64,000 nt of DNA, from assembly GCA_963777505.1 (NCBI GenBank), contig CAVZQN010000001.1, forward strand, positions 320,001 through 384,000. Reading direction: 5' to 3'. Origin of the DNA: an uncultured bacterium. GTDB taxonomy: Bacteria; Acidobacteriota; HRBIN11; JAKEFK01. Position numbers and translations under genes: made by a program. The notes beneath the pieces are model-generated. The model was not told the origin of the DNA, made no database searches, and saw only the letters and a program-made list of their open reading frames with translations. Positions 1 to 7,566 of this stretch are shown in pieces. Every line of letters starts with the position of its first letter. Position 1 is the first letter of the stretch.

Positions 1-1765
1 CTTCCCCAGGCATGGATTGGTTCGGATAATCTCCTGCGGCATAACGTTCTTCATTTGTGTAAGGCGTAACCCACAGATGGTAATTTGCGAACACTGCACG
101 GCTTAGTGGAAGTTCGTTTACATCCACTAAAGGAAGAGCATTTCCTTCGGAGTGAATCATGTAAGAAACAGGATATCCCAATGCATTTGTTTTTTGATGG
201 TTCATCACATGCCACATTGCAGGATTTTCGTAACTGAGTTTGAGCTTCGCTTCTGATTCAGTTTTTGCAACTTCCTCTTTGACACGCCACAGGCTGGGAC
301 GCGGTCCTTCACGAAGTTTTTCAACCACCAAAGGATTGCGCATAAAAGTATTTTGTTGTCCATCAATATCCAGATCCAAACGCAGCGACAAAAAGTGATC
401 GTGATTGATACCGGCTCTTCCGGCGGAAATAAGTGGACCCCACGCGGTATCTCTTTCTGCAGTCTCATCGCTGAGCTTTTGCGCTTTTACACCTTTTACT
501 GCATCGATTCCAGTAGCTCCAGCTTTGTATGTAATATTTCCTTTTTGATCAAAGATCCAATCGAGTACATAGTCATAGTTGCCAACAGTTGCGATGTATC
601 GAACAACCACTTCTGTTGCGGGACGGCTCTCCAATGCTTGTGTGATCAGATCGTAGTGGCGCCACACCGGTTCACCCGTTGATCGTTCAAAAACACAAAC
701 GCGATTCTCCAGAGTATCTACACCTCCTGAAACATTTGACATTACTGGCGAAAGAAACGTCGCAGAGGCAGGACAATCCGCTCCGGGAACCAGAGGTGAT
801 GCCATCGTTCCAAAACCAAAATCTCCTTCATCCATATAATTTCTGTAAAACCACCCTTTCGTTGGATCCTGATACGGCACAAAAATCTCGGATAAATATC
901 CTTGATAAAGTACAGAACGTGGTTGATCCTTTTCGTTGAAACTTGCCATGGAGATGATGACACCCGCCCGGATGTCCCAACGGATGTGAAAAGACCATTT
1001 CTGCCATTGAACAAATGACCCATCCAAATTGATATTGCTTCCCTCTGGCGAAGATTGAATAACTGGTTTCACATTTTTTTGAACACCCGTTGAGGCTGGA
1101 TCTAATTCGGAATTTCCGCCAGGTATCGGAACAACTCCCATGTCGGTTACTTCAAGAACCTTTTTTTGATCAAGATCAACTGTGGCGAATAGTCCTTCGA
1201 TCGGATTTGCAAACACATCGCTTTTGACGTTACGAACATCAAAACAATCCACCTTACTCAGCCGCTTTGTTTTCTCAATATCATTTCCGAAATTTCCTAT
1301 GGTACGAGGCGCGCAAAAGACTTTCGTAAAATCAGTAATCCCCCGTTTTTTCAGGCCTTCCTGTATCAAGGGATCAGAAACCACCAACTCGATTGCAGCC
1401 AAAATCTCAGACATTGTTAAAAAAGGTTGTGCTCCGGGAATTTCCTTATGCGATACGACTGAACCACTAATAAGATCGACGACTGCTTCATATGTTTTTG
1501 CATTTCTCCGTAAAATTGCAGCGGCTGCTCTTGGAATCGACTTCCCTGTTTTCCAGGCAAGCACAACCGACTTTTCCGGCTCCTCAAGTTTTATTGAAGC
1601 AAAAAGTGTTTCCTTGTCTGCATGACCCGCAGACTGAAGAATTGCAGTAGTTTTTGTAATTTCAGCTGCCGTTAAAGCATCGAGCGGATGTTTTACAGAA
1701 GCACACAAATGTGCAGTCAACAGAAACAGAAATGTGGTGAGAAAAGCGCCAGTTTTCCGGGACAT
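1..1765 (-). CDS. tynA: Copper-containing primary amine oxidase (TPQ-dependent), exported; 3' end runs off the window
   Basis: Hand translation from ATG 1765 (SD GGAGG upstream) gives a signal peptide, HPLDALTAAEI, NYMDEG (catalytic Asp), TVGNYDY (TPQ motif, in frame with the start) and NHDH (Cu ligands). Absent from the ORF track, probably because no stop lies inside the window. Confidence 0.9.
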   Translation of the reverse strand, partial: MSRKTGAFLTTFLFLLTAHLCASVKHPLDALTAAEITKTTAILQSAGHADKETLFASIKLEEPEKSVVLAWKTGKSIPRAAAAILRRNAKTYEAVVDLISGSVVSHKEIPGAQPFLTMSEILAAIELVVSDPLIQEGLKKRGITDFTKVFCAPRTIGNFGNDIEKTKRLSKVDCFDVRNVKSDVFANPIEGLFATVDLDQKKVLEVTDMGVVPIPGGNSELDPASTGVQKNVKPVIQSSPEGSNINLDGSFVQWQKWSFHIRWDIRAGVIISMASFNEKDQPRSVLYQGYLSEIFVPYQDPTKGWFYRNYMDEGDFGFGTMASPLVPGADCPASATFLSPVMSNVSGGVDTLENRVCVFERSTGEPVWRHYDLITQALESRPATEVVVRYIATVGNYDYVLDWIFDQKGNITYKAGATGIDAVKGVKAQKLSDETAERDTAWGPLISAGRAGINHDHFLSLRLDLDIDGQQNTFMRNPLVVEKLREGPRPSLWRVKEEVAKTESEAKLKLSYENPAMWHVMNHQKTNALGYPVSYMIHSEGNALPLVDVNELPLSRAVFANYHLWVTPYTNEERYAAGDYPNQSMPGE

Positions 1766-1879: not shown

Positions 1880-3725
1880 ATGAGAACTATGAAACTTTGC
1901 CGCAAATTTGCCTTCCTGTTCCTTGTACTGATTGCCACAACAAGCAACGCCGCAACTACGGATGACGTCTTATCAAAAGATATTAAATCCTGGAAAGAGT
2001 TTATCCGTACAAACACAGCGACAGATGAAACCTCAAAATACATACGCGAATCATCAGAACCTTTATTGGTGAAAGCCGAGCAAGCTCTCGCGGAAGGAAA
2101 ACGATTCTATGCCCTTCATGTACTCGCCGTTATACGCGGGAATCTCTCCGCAATTAAATACATGGCAACTCTTCCCACAAAAACCAGGAAAGAACTTCCT
2201 GCATTTGAAGAGGAATGGAAAAAGATCGGTTTGACACTTGCTCCTGTTTTAAGCGGCAAAGAAAAACCCAACTTTGACGGTTTATCGGATGCCACGCGTG
2301 CGATCGCAGAAGCGTCTTATTCGGAAATCAAAGTCTATTACGACTCAAGCCTTGATTACGGTCGCGATACAGATCCGGATTCAGGCCTCTTTTATTTGGG
2401 AGTTGCACAAGGACAACTGGATTTTGCGCGCTTCTGCGCTGAACTAAAAGATGCAAAGCACTCGAAATCGCGCACTCCCGATCAACTCTCAGATGAGATC
2501 GACCAGTTTGAAAACCTTTTACTATCGCTATACAAACCACCGGCATCAATGGAACATCATCCGATTTTTATCCGTTCAAGTGCCATGATCAAACAAGCCC
2601 ATGAATTGATTGCCGCAAATATGAAGGATGGTGCTTTTTATCGTTATCTTGATGCGCGCAGACGCTTATCACCGATCACCGGAGCCGGCAAAACAATCAG
2701 CGCTGAAGAAGCGGCTAAACAAGCGAGTGAAATTGAAACACGCTTAGACAAAACTGCGGAAGACAACAGCATCGCACAGCTTTTTCTTGAAATGGCTTTA
2801 ACTGAAGCGGCTGATACAACTCCAAATACAAAAGGCGGCGAAACTGCAAACGTAATTTTTACTGATGTTCTCCCGCATTATTTCACTGCACTTGAGCCAG
2901 GTAAAAAGAAAACTGCTTCCTCCGAAACCTGAAATTACAGTAACTCTTGTACGTTGGCCATACACTTGAAATGTTTCCGATCCAGCAGGTTTGCTGACAC
3001 AAAGCGTCATTCAAAGTTTCAAAGGAAAGGTCAATCTTGTCACTGAAAATTATGGAAACTCCGAGCTTGCAAAACGATTTGGAGTAACACGATATCCCGC
3101 AATTTTTGTTGATGACATCTTAGTTGCAAAGCCCAAAGACTTCGGCTTCTACGGAAAAGGAGAAGGAAGCGGCGACGGACGCTATACGCCATGGAAAGAC
3201 GTCAATAGTCATGAGCGTTTCAGAAAAGATCTCACAACAATGCTCGAACGTGTTCTTGCCGGAGAAAAAGAAACGCTACGCCAGCAGACTGAATCAACTG
3301 AAACTGCCGAAATTAAGACGCTTCCGGCTTTCACATTGAATGATTTCTCTGGCAAACCGATCCGCGCAGAAGATCTGAAAGGGAAAGTTGTCCTGGTGGA
3401 ATTTTGGGCAACCTGGTGCCCGCCTTGCCGTAGTACATTAAGCTGGCTAGGTCAGCTAAAGAAACAATATGGCGATAAGCTGGAAATTGTTGCAGTCGCA
3501 ATTGAGTCTGATGAACCAGAAGTTAAGAAAGTCGCGGAAAAACTCAACCTTCCACTGCGCTGGACAATGGGATCAGCGGATGTCGCGCGATCATTCGGGG
3601 ACATCAGCGCGGTTCCGACGCTCTATTTATTCAACACAAAAGGCGAAACCGTTGAAATCTATTATGGTGCGCCACCGGAGCTGCACGATTTGGCTGAACG
3701 CGACATCGCCTCTGCACTGAAGTAG
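1880..3725 (+). CDS. Putative exported selenoprotein: helical N-domain + Sec thioredoxin-fold domain (UxxS) + TlpA-like CPPC domain; needs one frameshift correction near 2903-2912 and TGA 2967-2969 read as Sec
   Basis: ORFs 1880-2932 and 2991-3725 join through PKPEITVTLVRWPYT-TGA-NVSDPAGLL. Downstream are FGVTRYPAIFVD (Trx cis-Pro loop) and EFWATWCPPC. A SECIS-like hairpin follows the TGA. Confidence 0.75.
2982..2997 (+). promoter_or_regulatory. Bacterial SECIS-like stem-loop CAGCA-GGTT-TGCTG
   Basis: GCA GGT TTG at codons +6..+8 after the TGA; E. coli fdhF has GCA GGT CTG at the same codon positions. Confidence 0.75.
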
Positions 3726-3791: not shown

Positions 3792-3869
3792 AACCACGAA
3801 GCTCACGGCATCACGAAGTTTATTTTTTAGTGGTAAGCTTCTTCGTGCCTCTTCGTGAACTTCGTGGTT
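3792..3869. repeat. Inverted repeat built from ~9-nt CACGAAG units
   Basis: AACCACGAAG...CTTCGTGGTT with internal CACGAAG/CTTCGTG copies. Confidence 0.6.
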
Positions 3870-3907
3870 TAAGAGCCGGCAAGATGCCAGCGTTACAAAT
3901 TGCTTGG

Positions 3908-5143
3908 ATGAATAAAATCCTGACTGCTCTACTGTTGATCTTTTTTACAGCTTTTTTATTTGCTGAAGATCCGCAAGTTACAATCCTTCGCGCCAAGCGT
4001 ATGCTCGATGTAAAGTCGGGCAACATCATCAATGATGCTGTACTTGTGATTGAAGCTGGCAAGATTACATCGGTCAATTCGAACAATCTGCCGGCTCAAG
4101 CAAATACGATTGATCTTGGTGATGTCACTTTGCTTCCAGGATTGATCGACATGCATACGCATCTTACTTATGATTCGGCCGATTTTCGTCTTGATCTTGG
4201 AAAACACCCAGGAGCCGCTACGTCAGGTAGAGCGTTATTGGGTGCGAAGTTCGCAAAAATCACATTGATGGCGGGATTCACAACTGTCCGCGATCTTGGG
4301 GCGTGTTGTTATTCTGACATTACTTTAATGCGAGCAATAGAAAAAGGAATCACTGAAGGTCCTGATATATTTCCATCCGGTTACATCATTGCAATCACCG
4401 GAGGACATTGCGATCAAACAGTTGTAAATCCAGATGTAAAAGATGCGGGCCCTGAAGAAGGAGTTGCCGATTCACCTGAGGAAATCGTTGAAGCTGTGCG
4501 TTATCAAATTAAATATGGAGCAAAGGTCATCAAAACTTGTGCGGATCAAAAACAATTCAATGAAGATGAATTACGGATTATGGCGGATGCCGCGCACAGA
4601 AGCGGAGTCAAGCTTGCGGTTCATGTCTGGGAAACTGAAAGCATTTCTAATGCAGTGAATGCCGGCGCTGATTCAATCGAACACGTCTCCTTGATGAATG
4701 ATGAAATCATCAACAGCATGATAAAAAAAGGAACCTACCTGGTTCCAACGATGTATACAGTTGACGGAATGGATTTCAGCAAATTAAAGCCTGAGATGAA
4801 AGCATTGCTTGAAAAAGAAATGCCTGAATATGAAAAGAGTTTGCGAAATTCAATCAAACGCGGAGTTAAGATTGCATTTGGCAGCGACACCGGCCAGATC
4901 TCACATGGGGAAAATGCCAAAGAATTCTCAAGCCTTGTTAAATATGGAATGACTCCACTTCAAGCGATTCAATCAGCTACAATTCACGCTGCCGATCTGC
5001 TCGGTGTTAAAGACAGGGGTTCGCTCGAAGCCGGATTGCGGGCTGACGTTATAGCCGTAAAAGGGAATCCTCTCGAAGATGTAAAGACGCTTGAAAACGT
5101 TCAGTTCGTAATGAAATCGGGCACCATATATAAGAAGCCGTAA
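3908..5143 (+). CDS. Metal-dependent amidohydrolase (Xaa-Pro dipeptidase-like), signal peptide
   Basis: LLPGLIDMHTH, GFTTVRDLG, IKTC, SIEH and FGSDTG motifs. Start moved to MNKILTALL because the upstream extension crosses repeats. Confidence 0.88.
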   Translation: MNKILTALLLIFFTAFLFAEDPQVTILRAKRMLDVKSGNIINDAVLVIEAGKITSVNSNNLPAQANTIDLGDVTLLPGLIDMHTHLTYDSADFRLDLGKHPGAATSGRALLGAKFAKITLMAGFTTVRDLGACCYSDITLMRAIEKGITEGPDIFPSGYIIAITGGHCDQTVVNPDVKDAGPEEGVADSPEEIVEAVRYQIKYGAKVIKTCADQKQFNEDELRIMADAAHRSGVKLAVHVWETESISNAVNAGADSIEHVSLMNDEIINSMIKKGTYLVPTMYTVDGMDFSKLKPEMKALLEKEMPEYEKSLRNSIKRGVKIAFGSDTGQISHGENAKEFSSLVKYGMTPLQAIQSATIHAADLLGVKDRGSLEAGLRADVIAVKGNPLEDVKTLENVQFVMKSGTIYKKP

Positions 5144-5162: not shown

Positions 5163-5768
5163 ATGAGCTCTGAACTGAGGCCCGAGCTAGTTTCACTGAG
5201 CCACGATTTTTATCGGAGAGGCTGGACACTTGCTACCAGTGGAAATTTTTCGGCACGGATCGATCCACAGCATTTCATCATCACTGCATCGGGAAAAGAT
5301 AAAGGTGCTCTTCAAGCAGATGATTTCGTAGAGCTGGATCTACAGGGCCATTATCGAAAATCCGGTGAAGCCCGTCCCTCAGCCGAAACGCTGCTGCATG
5401 CGACTCTCTACAAAGAGCTTCCGGATATCAATTGTGTTTTGCATACGCATTCGGTCTTCTCAAATGTGCTTTCAATGAAAGGACTCAATGAAGGAAGACT
5501 GCTGATACAAAACTATGAAATGTTGAAAGCGCTTGATGGTGTTTACACACACGAGCACACTGAAACACTCCGGGTCCTCCCAAATTCCCAGGACATGGTT
5601 GCGTTGTCGGAAAAAATTGCAGATCTTGTTCATGATGAGCCTGAGCCTCATGGTTTCTTGATTGCAGCCCATGGTTTGTATACCTGGGGAAAATCGATAC
5701 GTGAAGCAAGGAGACACCTGGAGGCTCTTGAGTTCTTGCTCGAATGTGAGCACAGAAGAGTAAAATAG
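5163..5768 (+). CDS. mtnB: Methylthioribulose-1-phosphate dehydratase
   Basis: ATSGNFS, ITASGKDKG, PSAETLLH, LHTHS and HGLYTWG motifs; adjacent to mtnD and mtnC. Confidence 0.93.
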   Translation: MSSELRPELVSLSHDFYRRGWTLATSGNFSARIDPQHFIITASGKDKGALQADDFVELDLQGHYRKSGEARPSAETLLHATLYKELPDINCVLHTHSVFSNVLSMKGLNEGRLLIQNYEMLKALDGVYTHEHTETLRVLPNSQDMVALSEKIADLVHDEPEPHGFLIAAHGLYTWGKSIREARRHLEALEFLLECEHRRVK

Positions 5769-5788
5769 AAACATTGGAGGAAATACCA

Positions 5789-6355
5789 ATGAGTTTACTG
5801 CGCGTCTATTCTGAAAAAGATCCACAGATGTACGATGAATTCAAGGATCATGAAAAAATCGCTGATGTAATGAAAACTTCTGGAATCCGATTTGAACTCT
5901 GGAAAGTCGATCAACCTGTTTCAGGTGACGCCACGCAGGAACAAATTTTAAAAGCCTACGAAGGTTCGCTGGATCGGATCATGGCAGAGATCGGAGTCTC
6001 TACCGCAGATGTGATCGCTGTAAACTCACAAATGCCCAATCATCCCGAACTGCGAAAGAAATTCCTGGATGAGCATATGCATGATGAAGATGAGGCGCGC
6101 TTTTTTGTAGATGGCAGCGGTATCTTCTACATTCACAAAGACGGAAAAGTATTTTGTTTGCTCTGTGAAAAAGGTGATTTCGTAAACATTCCAGCAGGAA
6201 CTACACATTGGTTTGATATGGGCCCAACTCCTCTTCTGAAATGCATTCGCACTTTCAATACGCCTGAAGGATGGGTAGCGAAATTTACCGGATCAGACAT
6301 TGCATCTCGTTATCCACGCTATGAACAAATCGTTCCTTTACCAGCAAGAGTGTGA
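5789..6355 (+). CDS. mtnD: Acireductone dioxygenase
   Basis: KFLDEHMHDEDEARFFVDGSG and PAGTTHWFDMG; SD GGAGG before ATG 5789. Confidence 0.93.
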   Translation: MSLLRVYSEKDPQMYDEFKDHEKIADVMKTSGIRFELWKVDQPVSGDATQEQILKAYEGSLDRIMAEIGVSTADVIAVNSQMPNHPELRKKFLDEHMHDEDEARFFVDGSGIFYIHKDGKVFCLLCEKGDFVNIPAGTTHWFDMGPTPLLKCIRTFNTPEGWVAKFTGSDIASRYPRYEQIVPLPARV

Positions 6356-7041
6356 AACCCTCAGTCATTCTGTGCGACATTGAAGGAACTACGAGCTCGC
6401 TGTCTTTTGTTCATGATGTTTTGTTTCCACTTTCCTACGAACAAATGGAGAGTTTTATCAAAAAGCATTGGAAAAGCGGAGTTATTTCTGGTGAAATTAA
6501 TTCCTTTCTCACTCAGAATCAGGAAACTGGAGCTGAGGATTTCATCCATACATTACGATCCTGGATTTTGGAAGACCGCAAAGATCCAGTATTAAAATCG
6601 ATTCAGGGAAAGATCTGGAAAGAAGCATTTGAATCAGGATCAATTCAAGGACATGTTTATCCCGATGTTCCACCAAATTTTCGCAAATGGAACGATGAGC
6701 AGATTAGAGTTTGCATCTTTAGTTCAGGATCTGTGCAAGCACAAAAGTTGTTGTTTCAATATTCCGAAGCAGGAGACCTTACGTCTTTAATATCTGCCTA
6801 TTTCGACACGACAATTGGAACGAAAAAGAACAAGGCTGCGTACGCCAGCATATCGGAACAATTGGCAGTCACTCCTGCAAAGATTCTTTTTTTGAGTGAT
6901 GTTGAAGATGAACTCAATGCAGCGCGTGATGCTGAATTGAAGACTATTCAGGTCTTACGCGAAGGCGTGATTTCAAATTCGTCCGGTCATGTAATGGTAA
7001 ATACCTTTGATGATCTCCGTTCTTTTGTGTCTTCAAGGTAA
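6352..7041 (+). CDS. mtnC: Enolase-phosphatase E1 (acireductone synthase)
   Basis: DIEGTTSS, FVHDVLFP, LKSIQGKIW, SSGSVQAQKLLF and LFLSD motifs. Confidence 0.93.
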   Translation: MKPSVILCDIEGTTSSLSFVHDVLFPLSYEQMESFIKKHWKSGVISGEINSFLTQNQETGAEDFIHTLRSWILEDRKDPVLKSIQGKIWKEAFESGSIQGHVYPDVPPNFRKWNDEQIRVCIFSSGSVQAQKLLFQYSEAGDLTSLISAYFDTTIGTKKNKAAYASISEQLAVTPAKILFLSDVEDELNAARDAELKTIQVLREGVISNSSGHVMVNTFDDLRSFVSSR

Positions 7042-7047
7042 GATTTC

Positions 7048-7566
7048 ATGATGCCCATTTCGATTCGTCCATACAGACTTGATGATGCTCCAGCTCTTTA
7101 TGAGGCAGCGATCGAATCTGTAAAAGAGGTTTACCCATTCATGGCCTGGTGTCATCCCACTTTATCTATCAATGATTTATGGAAATGGGTAAACGACCAA
7201 ATATCGGCGTTTGGTGCAAGAAGGCAATTTGAGTTTGTAATTCAACGCGAGGATGGCCGACTATTGGGTGGATGTGGTTTAAATCAAATTGATGGCGAAA
7301 ATCGCCGCGCAAATCTTGGATATTGGGTTCGCACTTCAGCCACTGGCCAGGGAGTCGCCAGAAGTGCTATTCGGGAATTAGTTGACTGGGCATTTCAAAA
7401 TACAAATTTAATCAGGTTGGAACTGATTATATCTTCCCAAAATTCTGCAAGCCTTCGCACTGCTGAAAATGCTGGCGCAGTAAAAGAAGGGATTTTGAAA
7501 AATCGTTTGCTGCTTCATGGAAAACCTCATGATGCGGTTGTATTTTCATTCACTCGCACCATCTAG
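7048..7566 (+). CDS. GNAT N-acetyltransferase, RimJ/RimL family
   Basis: ANLGYWVRTSATGQGVA, NSASLRTAE and EGILKNRL. Confidence 0.88.
   Translation: MMPISIRPYRLDDAPALYEAAIESVKEVYPFMAWCHPTLSINDLWKWVNDQISAFGARRQFEFVIQREDGRLLGGCGLNQIDGENRRANLGYWVRTSATGQGVARSAIRELVDWAFQNTNLIRLELIISSQNSASLRTAENAGAVKEGILKNRLLLHGKPHDAVVFSFTRTI

Follow-up and report, generated by a model that had tools for sequence, protein, structure and literature searches.

We wanted to know whether two adjacent anonymous open reading frames near the beginning of the window (the whole stretch of 64,000 nucleotides analysed here) represent two genes or one, and whether the TGA at position 2967, which lies between them, acts as a stop codon. 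The list of open reading frames contains ORF 1880-2932, which encodes 350 aa, and ORF 2991-3725, which encodes 244 aa and begins with TTG. Read upstream, the frame of the latter gives ...PEITVTLVRWPYT-TGA(2967-2969)-NVSDPAGLLTQSV, and the DNA located 3' of the TGA is AAT GTT TCC GAT CCA GCA GGT TTG CTG. A preliminary description of this DNA had reported both frames, the upstream reading, the letters that follow the TGA and a hairpin formed by them, and all of these are present in the window.

We found that positions 1880-3725 of the plus strand form a single gene of approximately 614 codons, which annotation splits into two anonymous pieces (Table 1). Comparative sequence analysis makes it likely that this gene specifies one exported selenocysteine (Sec) protein of approximately 614 residues, which would belong to a widespread and apparently undescribed family and may work through the relay mechanism proposed below. 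The length, the placement of Sec at about residue 363 and the three-domain layout given in the preliminary description agree with the translation and with the model of an ortholog.

Table 1. Features of the gene at 1880-3725, in window positions
Feature	Position	Strand	Remarks
Predicted Sec-type signal peptide	1880..1951	+	Residues 1-24, S-N-A then A25; read by eye from the translation
N-terminal all-alpha domain	1952..2912	+	Without known family or fold
Frame break site	2913..2916	+	One surplus base compared with related contigs, reported at 2915
Predicted thioredoxin-like domain	2934..3290	+	U-N-V-S at the CxxC position, cis-Pro loop TRYPAIF; translation and ortholog model
TGA most likely read as selenocysteine	2967..2969	+	About residue 363 of the joined protein; homolog comparison
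Putative SECIS hairpin	2982..2997	+	CCAGCA / loop GGTT / TGCTGA; 5 pairs here, 6 in most homologs
TlpA/ResA-type thioredoxin domain	3318..3686	+	WCPPC 3414-3428; Cys codons 3417-3419 and 3426-3428
Stop codon TAG of the whole gene	3723..3725	+	Sequence

We compared the TGA column across homologous genes. There were 77 public loci, and the Sec column was covered by 74 of them, holding 75 gene copies. TGA was detected in 73 of the 75 homologous copies and TGC in two (L101 and L121). Three full-length Cys forms (P0010, P0012 and P0013), each encoded by a single ORF, had C aligned to U. No TAA, TAG or other residue was found in this column among the 75 copies and the three full-length Cys proteins. 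In 57 public loci the N-terminal, Sec and TlpA parts were in one frame, and tblastn with the G001 ortholog as the query gave one segment running through the TGA. The whole gene was present in four of 40 related genomes, each time as one frame of 604-637 codons that contained a single TGA.

The residues flanking Sec were strongly conserved, as V351, R352, W353, P354, D361, P362 and A363 were present in 61 of 61 sequences. On either side of the TGA, the peptide encoded by 2930-2990 was near-invariant, and no start codon was conserved within this stretch. The motif was U-N-[VLI]-S, with UGLS in two copies and UGVC in one (L109, the UxxC member). Both the alignment of homologs on either side of the TGA, with TGA or Cys in the column, and the conservation of this peptide had been predicted from the letters of the window and were borne out. 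Further, a profile search with the N-terminal domain returned 823 cluster representatives, and 137 of the best 150 of them ended exactly at ...WPYT. Relatives of this selenoprotein family are common in uncultured soil bacteria. By comparison, UGA 2967 is an internal codon of the gene and takes the place of the first Cys in a thioredoxin-fold CxxC motif (here U-N-V-S).

If the TGA were an ordinary stop, the locus would encode an exported helical protein and, adjacent to it, a TlpA-like protein starting from TTG 2991 or nearby. Such a pair is the outcome of standard gene calling, and the public N-terminal fragments are named 'hypothetical protein'. We consider it very improbable, given the conserved peptide across the TGA, the missing start codon and the single ORFs of the Cys forms. 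Moreover, the second piece, as a thioredoxin fold, would lack the first strand and the active site, and it would have no signal peptide either. Synonymous sites 3' of the TGA are kept unchanged in a hairpin that is absent from the Cys forms. The reading as two genes was rejected, since it is contradicted by the conservation across the TGA, the Cys ORFs and the hairpin.

The hairpin of the window, CAGCA-GGTT-TGCTG, has five of six possible pairs at offsets +15..+30 and a predicted energy of -6.1 kcal/mol (20-nt piece). A hairpin with the consensus CCRGCA-[G/A]GU[C/U]-UGCUGG, of 5-6 bp and located 15-30 nt 3' of the TGA, was observed in every TGA copy. The hairpin counts refer to 73 TGA copies, namely the window's own and 72 public ones. 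All six stem pairs were formed in 68 of the 73 copies and five pairs in the other five; 98.8% of stem cells were paired, and a putative lower stem, in which 80% were paired, was weakly supported. The third codon positions of the stem (GCA, GGT/AGT, YTG and CTG) were invariant in all 73 copies, and the third base of the CCR codon was A in 47, G in 26 and never a pyrimidine. The first and last bases of the loop switched jointly from G..C to A..U (positions 1 and 4: GC 55, AU 14, GU 1), with at least five changes on the tree, three of them forced by well-supported branches, while the GU in the loop was invariant. The two Cys loci lacked the hairpin, having one and four of the six pairs and no GU loop. 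It had been anticipated that only TGA versions would keep the hairpin, and this was the case. Since TGA occupied the column in 73 of 75 copies and the third codon positions of the hairpin were invariant in 73 of 73, the pattern is far beyond chance.

The hairpin had been likened to the SECIS element of E. coli fdhF, and the fdhF string quoted for this purpose (TGA CAC GGC CCA TCG GTT GCA GGT CTG CAC) is exact on the MG1655 record. The ten bases GCAGGTCTGC occupy offsets +18..+27, counted from the U of UGA, in both elements. They make up the upper stem and the GGUC loop, the GCA/UGC stem beginning 18 nt 3' of the UGA. The two elements differ in the helix, which is continuous here (6 bp, CCRGCA/UGCUGG), whereas that of fdhF (GGUUGCA/UGCACC) has a bulged U; this bulged U is important for E. 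coli SelB. They differ also in the loop, which alternates here between GGUC and AGUU. Thus, by comparison, the conserved xGUx-loop hairpin matches the apical part of the fdhF SECIS in both sequence and spacing. A permissive Rfam scan of 2850-3150 matched no family. A scan of the genome for TGA-N15-GCARGTYTGC matched this locus only, therefore the exact form of this SECIS marks no other gene in the genome.

As judged from RNA and profile matches, the genome contains the complete Sec-insertion machinery on which the preliminary description depended. We detected tRNA-Sec (69.6 bits, anticodon TCA), selB (400 bits), selA (565 bits) and selD (349 bits), and all four matches exceeded their cut-offs. 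The selD gene of this genome has its own TGA and a hairpin with a GGU loop at +20. Matches to selB exceeded the cut-off in five of the five genomes carrying the gene and in 35 of 41 genomes of this phylum; as Sec use is common in the phylum, this co-occurrence is non-discriminating. We conclude that, most likely, TGA 2967 is a selenocysteine codon and the gene product a large exported redox protein.

We then consider the junction between the two pieces. The first ORF is in frame 2 and the TGA in frame 0, therefore there is one base too many between them. The full protein cannot be made from the window copy as assembled. Both metagenome contigs that cross the break (X1 record 1 and X4 record 5) lack one base at 2915; one of them is 256 nt long and has two other differences, and the other covers 1881-3715 with its sole gap at 2915. 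It had been suggested that removal of one base within 2903-2912 would fuse the two frames. The fusion itself agrees with the 57 single-frame loci and with the contigs that are one base shorter, but the site does not, as 2915 lies three bases past the A-rich run at 2903-2912. Compared with a congener, this assembly had the frame broken in 10 of 112 long genes (approximately 9%). In the public records, frame breaks in this gene were concentrated in one MAG series (8 of its 18 loci), against 1 of the remaining 59 loci. The one-base frame break near 2915 is probably an assembly error.

The alternative is that the extra base near 2915 is real and that the organism's copy is a genuine pseudogene of a real selenoprotein family, and therefore only the 350-aa N-terminal fragment would be made. 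The break is present in the assembly as given, its junction lies outside any long homopolymer, and the contigs without the extra base come from other samples, perhaps from another strain. We nevertheless regard a pseudogene as unlikely, because the base is absent from the short contig in spite of its few other differences, and because the Sec codon, hairpin, CPPC and stop are intact 3' of the break, in a protein 72% identical to that of the congener. Further, the rate of similarly broken long genes fits assembly error better than decay, and the concentration of breaks in one MAG series also argues against a pseudogene.

In principle, the frames could be joined at AAAAAGAAAA by transcriptional slippage or by programmed ribosomal frameshifting, as the A-rich run adjoins the break. 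However, a +1 shift would be required, while sites of the A AAA AAG type promote -1 frameshifts. No frame change was observed there in the 57 public loci, a single base at 2915, and not slippage, separates the related contigs from this assembly, and the A runs are only five and four long. We give this explanation practically no weight, and it was rejected as contradicted by the single-frame homologs.

We also analyzed the joined protein. The predicted signal peptide has a basic start and the hydrophobic core FAFLFLVLIATT, followed by SNA, and the N-termini of homologs are comparable. The AlphaFold2 model of the full-length G001 ortholog had a pLDDT of 90.3 and a pTM of 0.84. The model of the N-terminal domain (pLDDT 92.4, pTM 0.88) contained 16 helices, and the conserved residues of this domain include Glu, Tyr, His and Asp. 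No Pfam or NCBIfam family matched the N-terminal domain, and Foldseek against the PDB returned no fold relative (best E 0.33, TM < 0.2). In the ESM Atlas the domain matched its own Acidobacteriota clusters only; the automatic 'MotC' names given there were rejected, as they are without Pfam support.

In the G001 model, the Sec domain consists of beta1 346-352, U357, a helix at 360-372 and beta strands at 378-384, 401-404 and 407-410. Its predicted secondary structure fits the beta-alpha-beta-alpha-beta-beta-alpha topology of thioredoxins, in which the nucleophile opens helix 1 and a cis-Pro precedes strand 3, and Y399-P400 is invariant. A sequence search of the PDB gave non-significant matches to PDO, Trx and PDI (E 0.5-1.3), and no Pfam family was found at E < 0.01. 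We predict that this domain has a divergent thioredoxin-like fold. The C-terminal domain matched Pfam families Redoxin (63.7 bits, cut-off 26.6), Thioredoxin_8 (59.2) and AhpC-TSA (58.1), each in excess of its cut-off. Foldseek with the whole model returned ResA, DsbE, TlpA and CcmG at TM (target) 0.8-0.88, with the TlpA-CoxB complex among the matches; as only TlpA/ResA-type matches were obtained, this search is silent on the other two domains. The CPPC residues C510, P511, P512 and C513 were conserved in 60-61 of 61 full-length sequences.

The surroundings of the gene were also analyzed. Promoter and terminator scans gave nothing exceeding the shuffled expectation. No RNA sequencing run containing the locus was listed, and none of the listed runs contained half of the locus words. 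Among the 77 loci there was no conserved neighbouring partner, the best being a GNAT gene (9/77), an ABC ATPase (8) and a permease (8).

The protein resembles the TlpA/ResA/CcmG (DsbE) oxidoreductases in the type of its C-terminal domain, the WCPPC motif, its predicted export and the presence of a DsbD_TM homolog in the genome. Its scores were far below the NCBIfam cut-offs for TlpA (NF047696, 61.5/230), ResA (NF002854, 77.8/170) and DsbE (TIGR00385, 35.1/123), therefore we describe a TlpA/ResA-type domain and not an ortholog. Unlike in those proteins, this domain forms the final third of a protein with three domains, and Sec is located outside it. The Neisseria PilB / MsrAB-type fusions link an enzyme to the TlpA-like thioredoxin domain that reduces it. 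The protein described here would follow the same logic, with an exported catalytic domain that has one nucleophile and is joined in cis to a CxxC reductant of the TlpA type, fed by DsbD or CcdA. The present protein differs from them in having no MsrA or MsrB domain (NF010625, 26 bits against a cut-off of 522, from the TlpA part only), in the reversed order of domains and in its nucleophile, which would be Sec in a thioredoxin fold.

Several thioredoxin-fold selenoproteins are known. The available part of a recent list names 'UGC-containing TlpA', 'thiol-disulfide isomerase-like (cd02966, UxxC)', 'Prx-like AhpC/TSA (cd02970, UxxS)', 'AhpF N-terminal homolog TIGR02187 (UxxC)' and GPx-like (UxxT) proteins (PMC13188914). 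The present protein shares with these the predicted location of Sec at the N-terminus of the first helix of a thioredoxin fold, the existence of Cys homologs and a predicted redox role. Its scores were below the cut-offs of WAxxUGC_long (36/300), TIGR02187 (25/185) and TUGYCR (14/100), and far under those of the PDO_seleno_TRX, SaoT, TsoX and SelL-related NCBIfam models. It is unlike them in that its TlpA site keeps CPPC, in that Sec belongs to another, divergent domain (U-N-[VLI]-S), and in the 310-aa helical domain of no known fold that precedes the Sec domain. No Pfam, NCBIfam (release 20) or Rfam model describes the whole family. The architecture had not been recognised as that of a characterised family, and it is absent both from that NCBIfam release and from the available part of the 2026 list, which comprises 119 prokaryotic selenoprotein families, mostly from marine and anaerobe data (PMC13188914). 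It is likewise undescribed in the available parts of the literature, including PMC9312934, though supplementary lists of primary screens may already include it. Apparently, this is a widespread, undescribed bacterial family of selenoproteins.

We infer that the protein works as a Sec-to-CPPC redox relay. SelB with Sec-tRNA would bind the hairpin and insert Sec. Once the protein is exported, the selenolate would attack an oxidised substrate such as a peroxide or a disulfide, perhaps one bound by the conserved all-alpha N-terminal domain. As Ser occupies the resolving position, the product, a selenenic acid or a selenenylsulfide, would be resolved by the dithiol of CPPC in the fused TlpA-type domain. 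The TlpA-type domain would then be re-reduced from the cytoplasm via a CcdA/DsbD-type membrane protein, for which the DsbD_TM homolog found in the genome is a candidate. We suggest tentatively, and with some doubt, that such proteins form a new class of extracytoplasmic selenoenzymes, with an all-alpha domain that binds or activates the substrate, a UxxS Sec centre and recycling in cis by a CcdA/DsbD-wired TlpA-type CPPC domain.

Sec might also be made and serve a different purpose, namely binding or transfer of a metal or metalloid (e.g. copper, selenium, arsenic or mercury species), with the TlpA domain merely keeping the site reduced. This would suit a U-x-x-S site without a resolving Cys and an N-terminal domain with the conserved residues named above. 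TlpA-type proteins also serve the assembly of copper centres (TlpA with ScoI and CoxB), consistent with the TlpA-CoxB complex among the Foldseek matches, and UxxS is given as the motif of selenoprotein arsenate reductase and rhodanese in the available part of the 2026 list (PMC13188914). However, no ArsC, rhodanese, Sco or metal-binding family matched at a useful score in Pfam or NCBIfam, the 77 loci had no conserved metal-related neighbour, and the UxxC member L109 fits redox chemistry. A role in metal or metalloid handling therefore seems to us a rather poor prospect.

In summary, standard annotation cuts every Sec-form member at the UGA into a 'hypothetical protein' and a headless TlpA-like fragment, and for this reason a widespread soil protein is invisible in current catalogues. 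Its recognition adds a family to the prokaryotic selenoproteome. The SECIS alignment is an unusually clean natural test, in which covariation of the loop ends is paid for by a Gly/Ser exchange in the protein. The N-terminal domain, with its high-confidence model and no fold relative in the PDB, is therefore worth structural and functional study. Thiol-reducing domains of the TlpA type are familiar chiefly from the assembly of cytochromes and copper centres. Here such a domain is joined to a putative Sec centre, which, if true, would place Sec in an extracytoplasmic relay. If these proteins do form a new class of selenoenzymes, it would comprise more than 800 clusters, almost all in the Sec form, and may be among the main uses of selenium in soil Acidobacteriota and their neighbours.

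When frame 0 was read 5' of position 2991 with TGA permitted, the translation ran ...LLPPKPEITVTLVRWPYT-U-NVSDPAGLLTQSV..., and the DNA directly 3' of this TGA (AAT GTT TCC GAT CCA GCA GGT TTG CTG) folded into the hairpin CAGCA-GGTT-TGCTG. We confirmed the preliminary description in these respects: both open reading frames, the TGA, the bases following it and the fold were found again, and the E. coli fdhF string quoted for comparison was exact against the MG1655 record.

Reading frames and in-frame TGA of the gene
Feature	Position	Strand	Length	Frame	Remark
ORF1	1880-2932	+	350 aa	2	
ORF2	2991-3725	+	244 aa	0	TTG start
TGA	2967-2969	+		0	

We searched 40 related genomes in six frames for close homologs of the gene. 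Four had one (G001, which is the congener, G005, G006 and the unpublished G035), each with exactly one internal TGA and with a single frame of 604-637 codons that runs through both the N-terminal helical part and the thioredoxin parts; among the five gene carriers only the window's genome had the two parts in different frames at the junction. Scanning one genome per species for the pattern, we obtained 77 loci, from Acidobacteriota (Thermoanaerobaculia, Vicinamibacteria, Holophagales), Planctomycetota, Eisenbacteria, a Kofleriaceae MAG, Acidimicrobiia and Armatimonadota. For the Sec column we left out L106 and L122, which start 3' of it, and L123, where it is missing (deletion or chimera). The remaining 74 loci held 75 gene copies, L058 contributing two. 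The codon was TGA in 73 copies and TGC in 2 (L101, L121), and VTLVRWP[YF]T-U-N[VLI]SDPA was near-invariant on both sides of the TGA in the public loci. Cys stood at this column in three full-length proteins of a metagenome protein collection (P0010, P0012, P0013; 575-743 aa). Homologs spanning the TGA, with TGA or Cys in the column, had been predicted from the sequence, and this was what we observed. More than 100 further matches in the collection were N-terminal fragments of 345-385 aa, called 'hypothetical protein' where any name was given. Searching with a profile of the N-terminal domain, we obtained 823 cluster representatives at E <=0.001 (420 at 1e-30); among the best 150 of the 823, 137 had their own C-terminus at the final profile position, ...WPYT, which is the TGA site, and none was the full-length form.

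Several loci showed individual variants. L058 (Thermoanaerobaculia MAG) carries tandem copies at 4-903 (truncated by the contig end) and 1073-2674, with TGA and hairpin in both. The planctomycetotal L109 (3034-3093) reads U-G-V-C, a resolving Cys replacing the family's Ser, and has the same hairpin with an AGTT loop; L102 and L105 read U-G-L-S. In L070 the codon of the invariant Trp, approximately 12 nt 5' of the Sec codon, is TGA and not TGG (VRUPYTU); this second in-frame TGA is probably a mutation or an error.

Further, we compared the hairpin in 73 TGA copies, i.e. that of the window and 72 of the 73 from public loci (L109, identified later, was left out). The consensus at +15..+30 after the TGA was CCRGCA-[G/A]GU[C/U]-UGCUGG, with the mid-loop GU invariant. 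Third positions of stem and loop codons were constant (GCA, 73/73; T of GGT or AGT, 73/73; G of YTG, 73/73; G of CTG, 73/73), and that of CCR was A in 47 copies, G in 26 and a pyrimidine in none, while those immediately flanking the hairpin varied freely. All six pairs formed in 68 copies and five in the other 5. In the 70 distinct sequences 98.8% of cells of the six stem pairs were paired, and the whole structure was paired in 92% unslid versus 24-52% in slid controls; a possible lower stem was weak (80% of cells). The first and last loop bases were G..C in 55 sequences, A..U in 14 and G..U in 1, that of the window. A FastTree phylogeny of 56 full-length Sec forms requires no fewer than 5 changes of this loop state, of which well-supported branches force 3. 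In each change a Gly/Ser replacement goes together with a synonymous change in the Leu codon; only constraint at the RNA level explains this pairing. The two Cys loci formed 1 and 4 of the 6 pairs and had no GU loop; the hairpin was thus kept in TGA versions only, as the preliminary description had expected. The core GCAGGTCTGC lies at +18..+27 both here and in E. coli fdhF, but the bulged U of the fdhF stem is absent from the family. A search of Rfam gave no family matching the hairpin.

The window's genome (5.23 Mb, 14 contigs, 44.6% G+C) encodes the Sec machinery that was to be expected: tRNA-Sec (69.6 bits; ARAGORN call SeC, anticodon TCA), selA (565 bits), selB (400 bits) and selD (349 bits), which itself contains one TGA. 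The latter, at G000:C1:410139-411071 outside the window, is itself a selenoprotein gene (…SGGU-AGK…), whose hairpin AGUCC-GGU-GGACU starts 15 nt after the UGA and places its GGU loop at +20, one base off the position in the window gene. As selB was above the cut-off in 5/5 gene-carrying genomes and also in 35/41 sampled genomes, this co-occurrence agrees with the Sec reading and does not discriminate.

ORF1 and the Sec frame are offset by one base too many. Both metagenome contigs crossing the break have one base fewer at 2915; one is 256 nt long with 2 other letter differences, the other is 7745 nt and spans 1881-3715 with 160 substitutions and this single gap. The proposed fusion by removal of one base is supported, at 2915 and not in 2903-2912, and so is the earlier interpretation apart from this exact site, its redox relay staying a proposal. 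As a gauge of assembly quality, 400 kb of congener sequence supplied 156 ORFs with a length of 300 aa or more; 112 had orthologs here (173.5 kb coding) and 12 of these were flagged for frame changes. Two were tandem paralogs, leaving 10 genes with 13 frame changes, approximately 1 per 13 kb. Many junctions lie outside long homopolymers (e.g. C4:1283182-1283194, C4:1171811-1171816, C5:107800-107828), and split genes in this assembly should in general be suspected of assembly error. Among public loci, breaks in this gene occurred in 8/18 records of one long-contig MAG series versus 1/59 other records; at L099 / L026 (G006) the break falls in the TlpA domain near the 3' end (…KSLN / LPLQWAMG…), the broken copy being in a long-contig MAG. 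The extra base may be a real mutation of this strain, but given the two contigs without it, the frame changes across the genome and the breaks in the MAG series, an assembly error is most likely. Programmed frameshifting is excluded, since 57 loci are single-frame throughout.

Without the extra base the gene encodes a protein of approximately 614 residues with Sec near 363, in agreement with the sizes first given; by eye, the start of this protein resembles a Sec-type signal peptide. We modelled the congener's ortholog P0001 (611 aa; 55-row alignment; pLDDT 90.3, pTM 0.84). Residues 24 to 332 are helices only; this N-terminal domain matched no Pfam or NCBIfam family and no PDB relative by Foldseek (best E 0.33), and the window's own domain was modelled at pLDDT 92.4. 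Its polar residues E138, Y154, T158, Y166, Y212, H221 and D289 (G001 numbering) are retained in 95% or more of the 61 sequences compared. The Sec domain (strand 346-352, U357, helix 360-372, strands 378-384, 401-404 and 407-410, two more helices) is the most conserved region, with no significant family match and no significant PDB sequence match. The Pfam families Redoxin, Thioredoxin_8 and AhpC-TSA matched the TlpA-type domain (480 to 611; CPPC retained in 60-61/61) above their cut-offs. The domain can be superposed on ResA, DsbE, TlpA and CcmG, and its scores against the NCBIfam models of those proteins lie far under the cut-offs. P0038, P0058 and P0076, fragments starting 3' of Sec, carry approximately 200 further residues C-terminal of this domain, with no Pfam match on record.

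None of the many curated selenoprotein models of NCBIfam release 20 reached its cut-off for this protein. Table 1 of a 2026 review (PMC13188914) gives 119 prokaryotic selenoprotein families and subfamilies, including TlpA-type proteins whose Sec occupies the TlpA site and several UxxS families of other folds; no entry of the table matched the architecture, and the claim that this is not a characterised family held to that extent. Full-text searches of published articles returned no description of it. We rate it as a new family among thioredoxin-fold bacterial selenoproteins, unusual in being built of three domains, the N-terminal of which has a fold without PDB relative.

Among the 77 loci we found no conserved neighbour pointing to a substrate. 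A GNAT-type acetyltransferase ORF lies 3' of the gene in 9/77 loci (e.g. L118:4113-4715), a weak linkage, and a homolog lies in the window at 7048-7566, 3.3 kb 3' of the gene. The neighbours at 2-1765 (-), 3830-5143 and 5163-7041 we take by eye to be copper amine oxidase-, amidohydrolase- and methionine-salvage-cluster-like, the last presumably comprising, from translations, dehydratase, acireductone dioxygenase and enolase-phosphatase.

The recoding signal and the architecture are established by these comparisons, and the chemistry we infer from them. Because Ser takes the resolving place, the selenolate at the CxxC position could not recycle itself. In every case a CPPC domain is fused to the Sec domain; domains of this type take their electrons from CcdA or DsbD, and the window's genome has a DsbD_TM homolog. 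As a fair rival, the protein may instead handle metals or metalloids. On the basis of the Ser, the constant CPPC fusion and the DsbD_TM homolog, the simplest reading would be a relay, resembling the fusion of a TlpA-like domain to methionine sulfoxide reductases in Neisseria. We propose that this relay would run from substrate to Sec, from Sec to CPPC and from CPPC to the membrane reductant.
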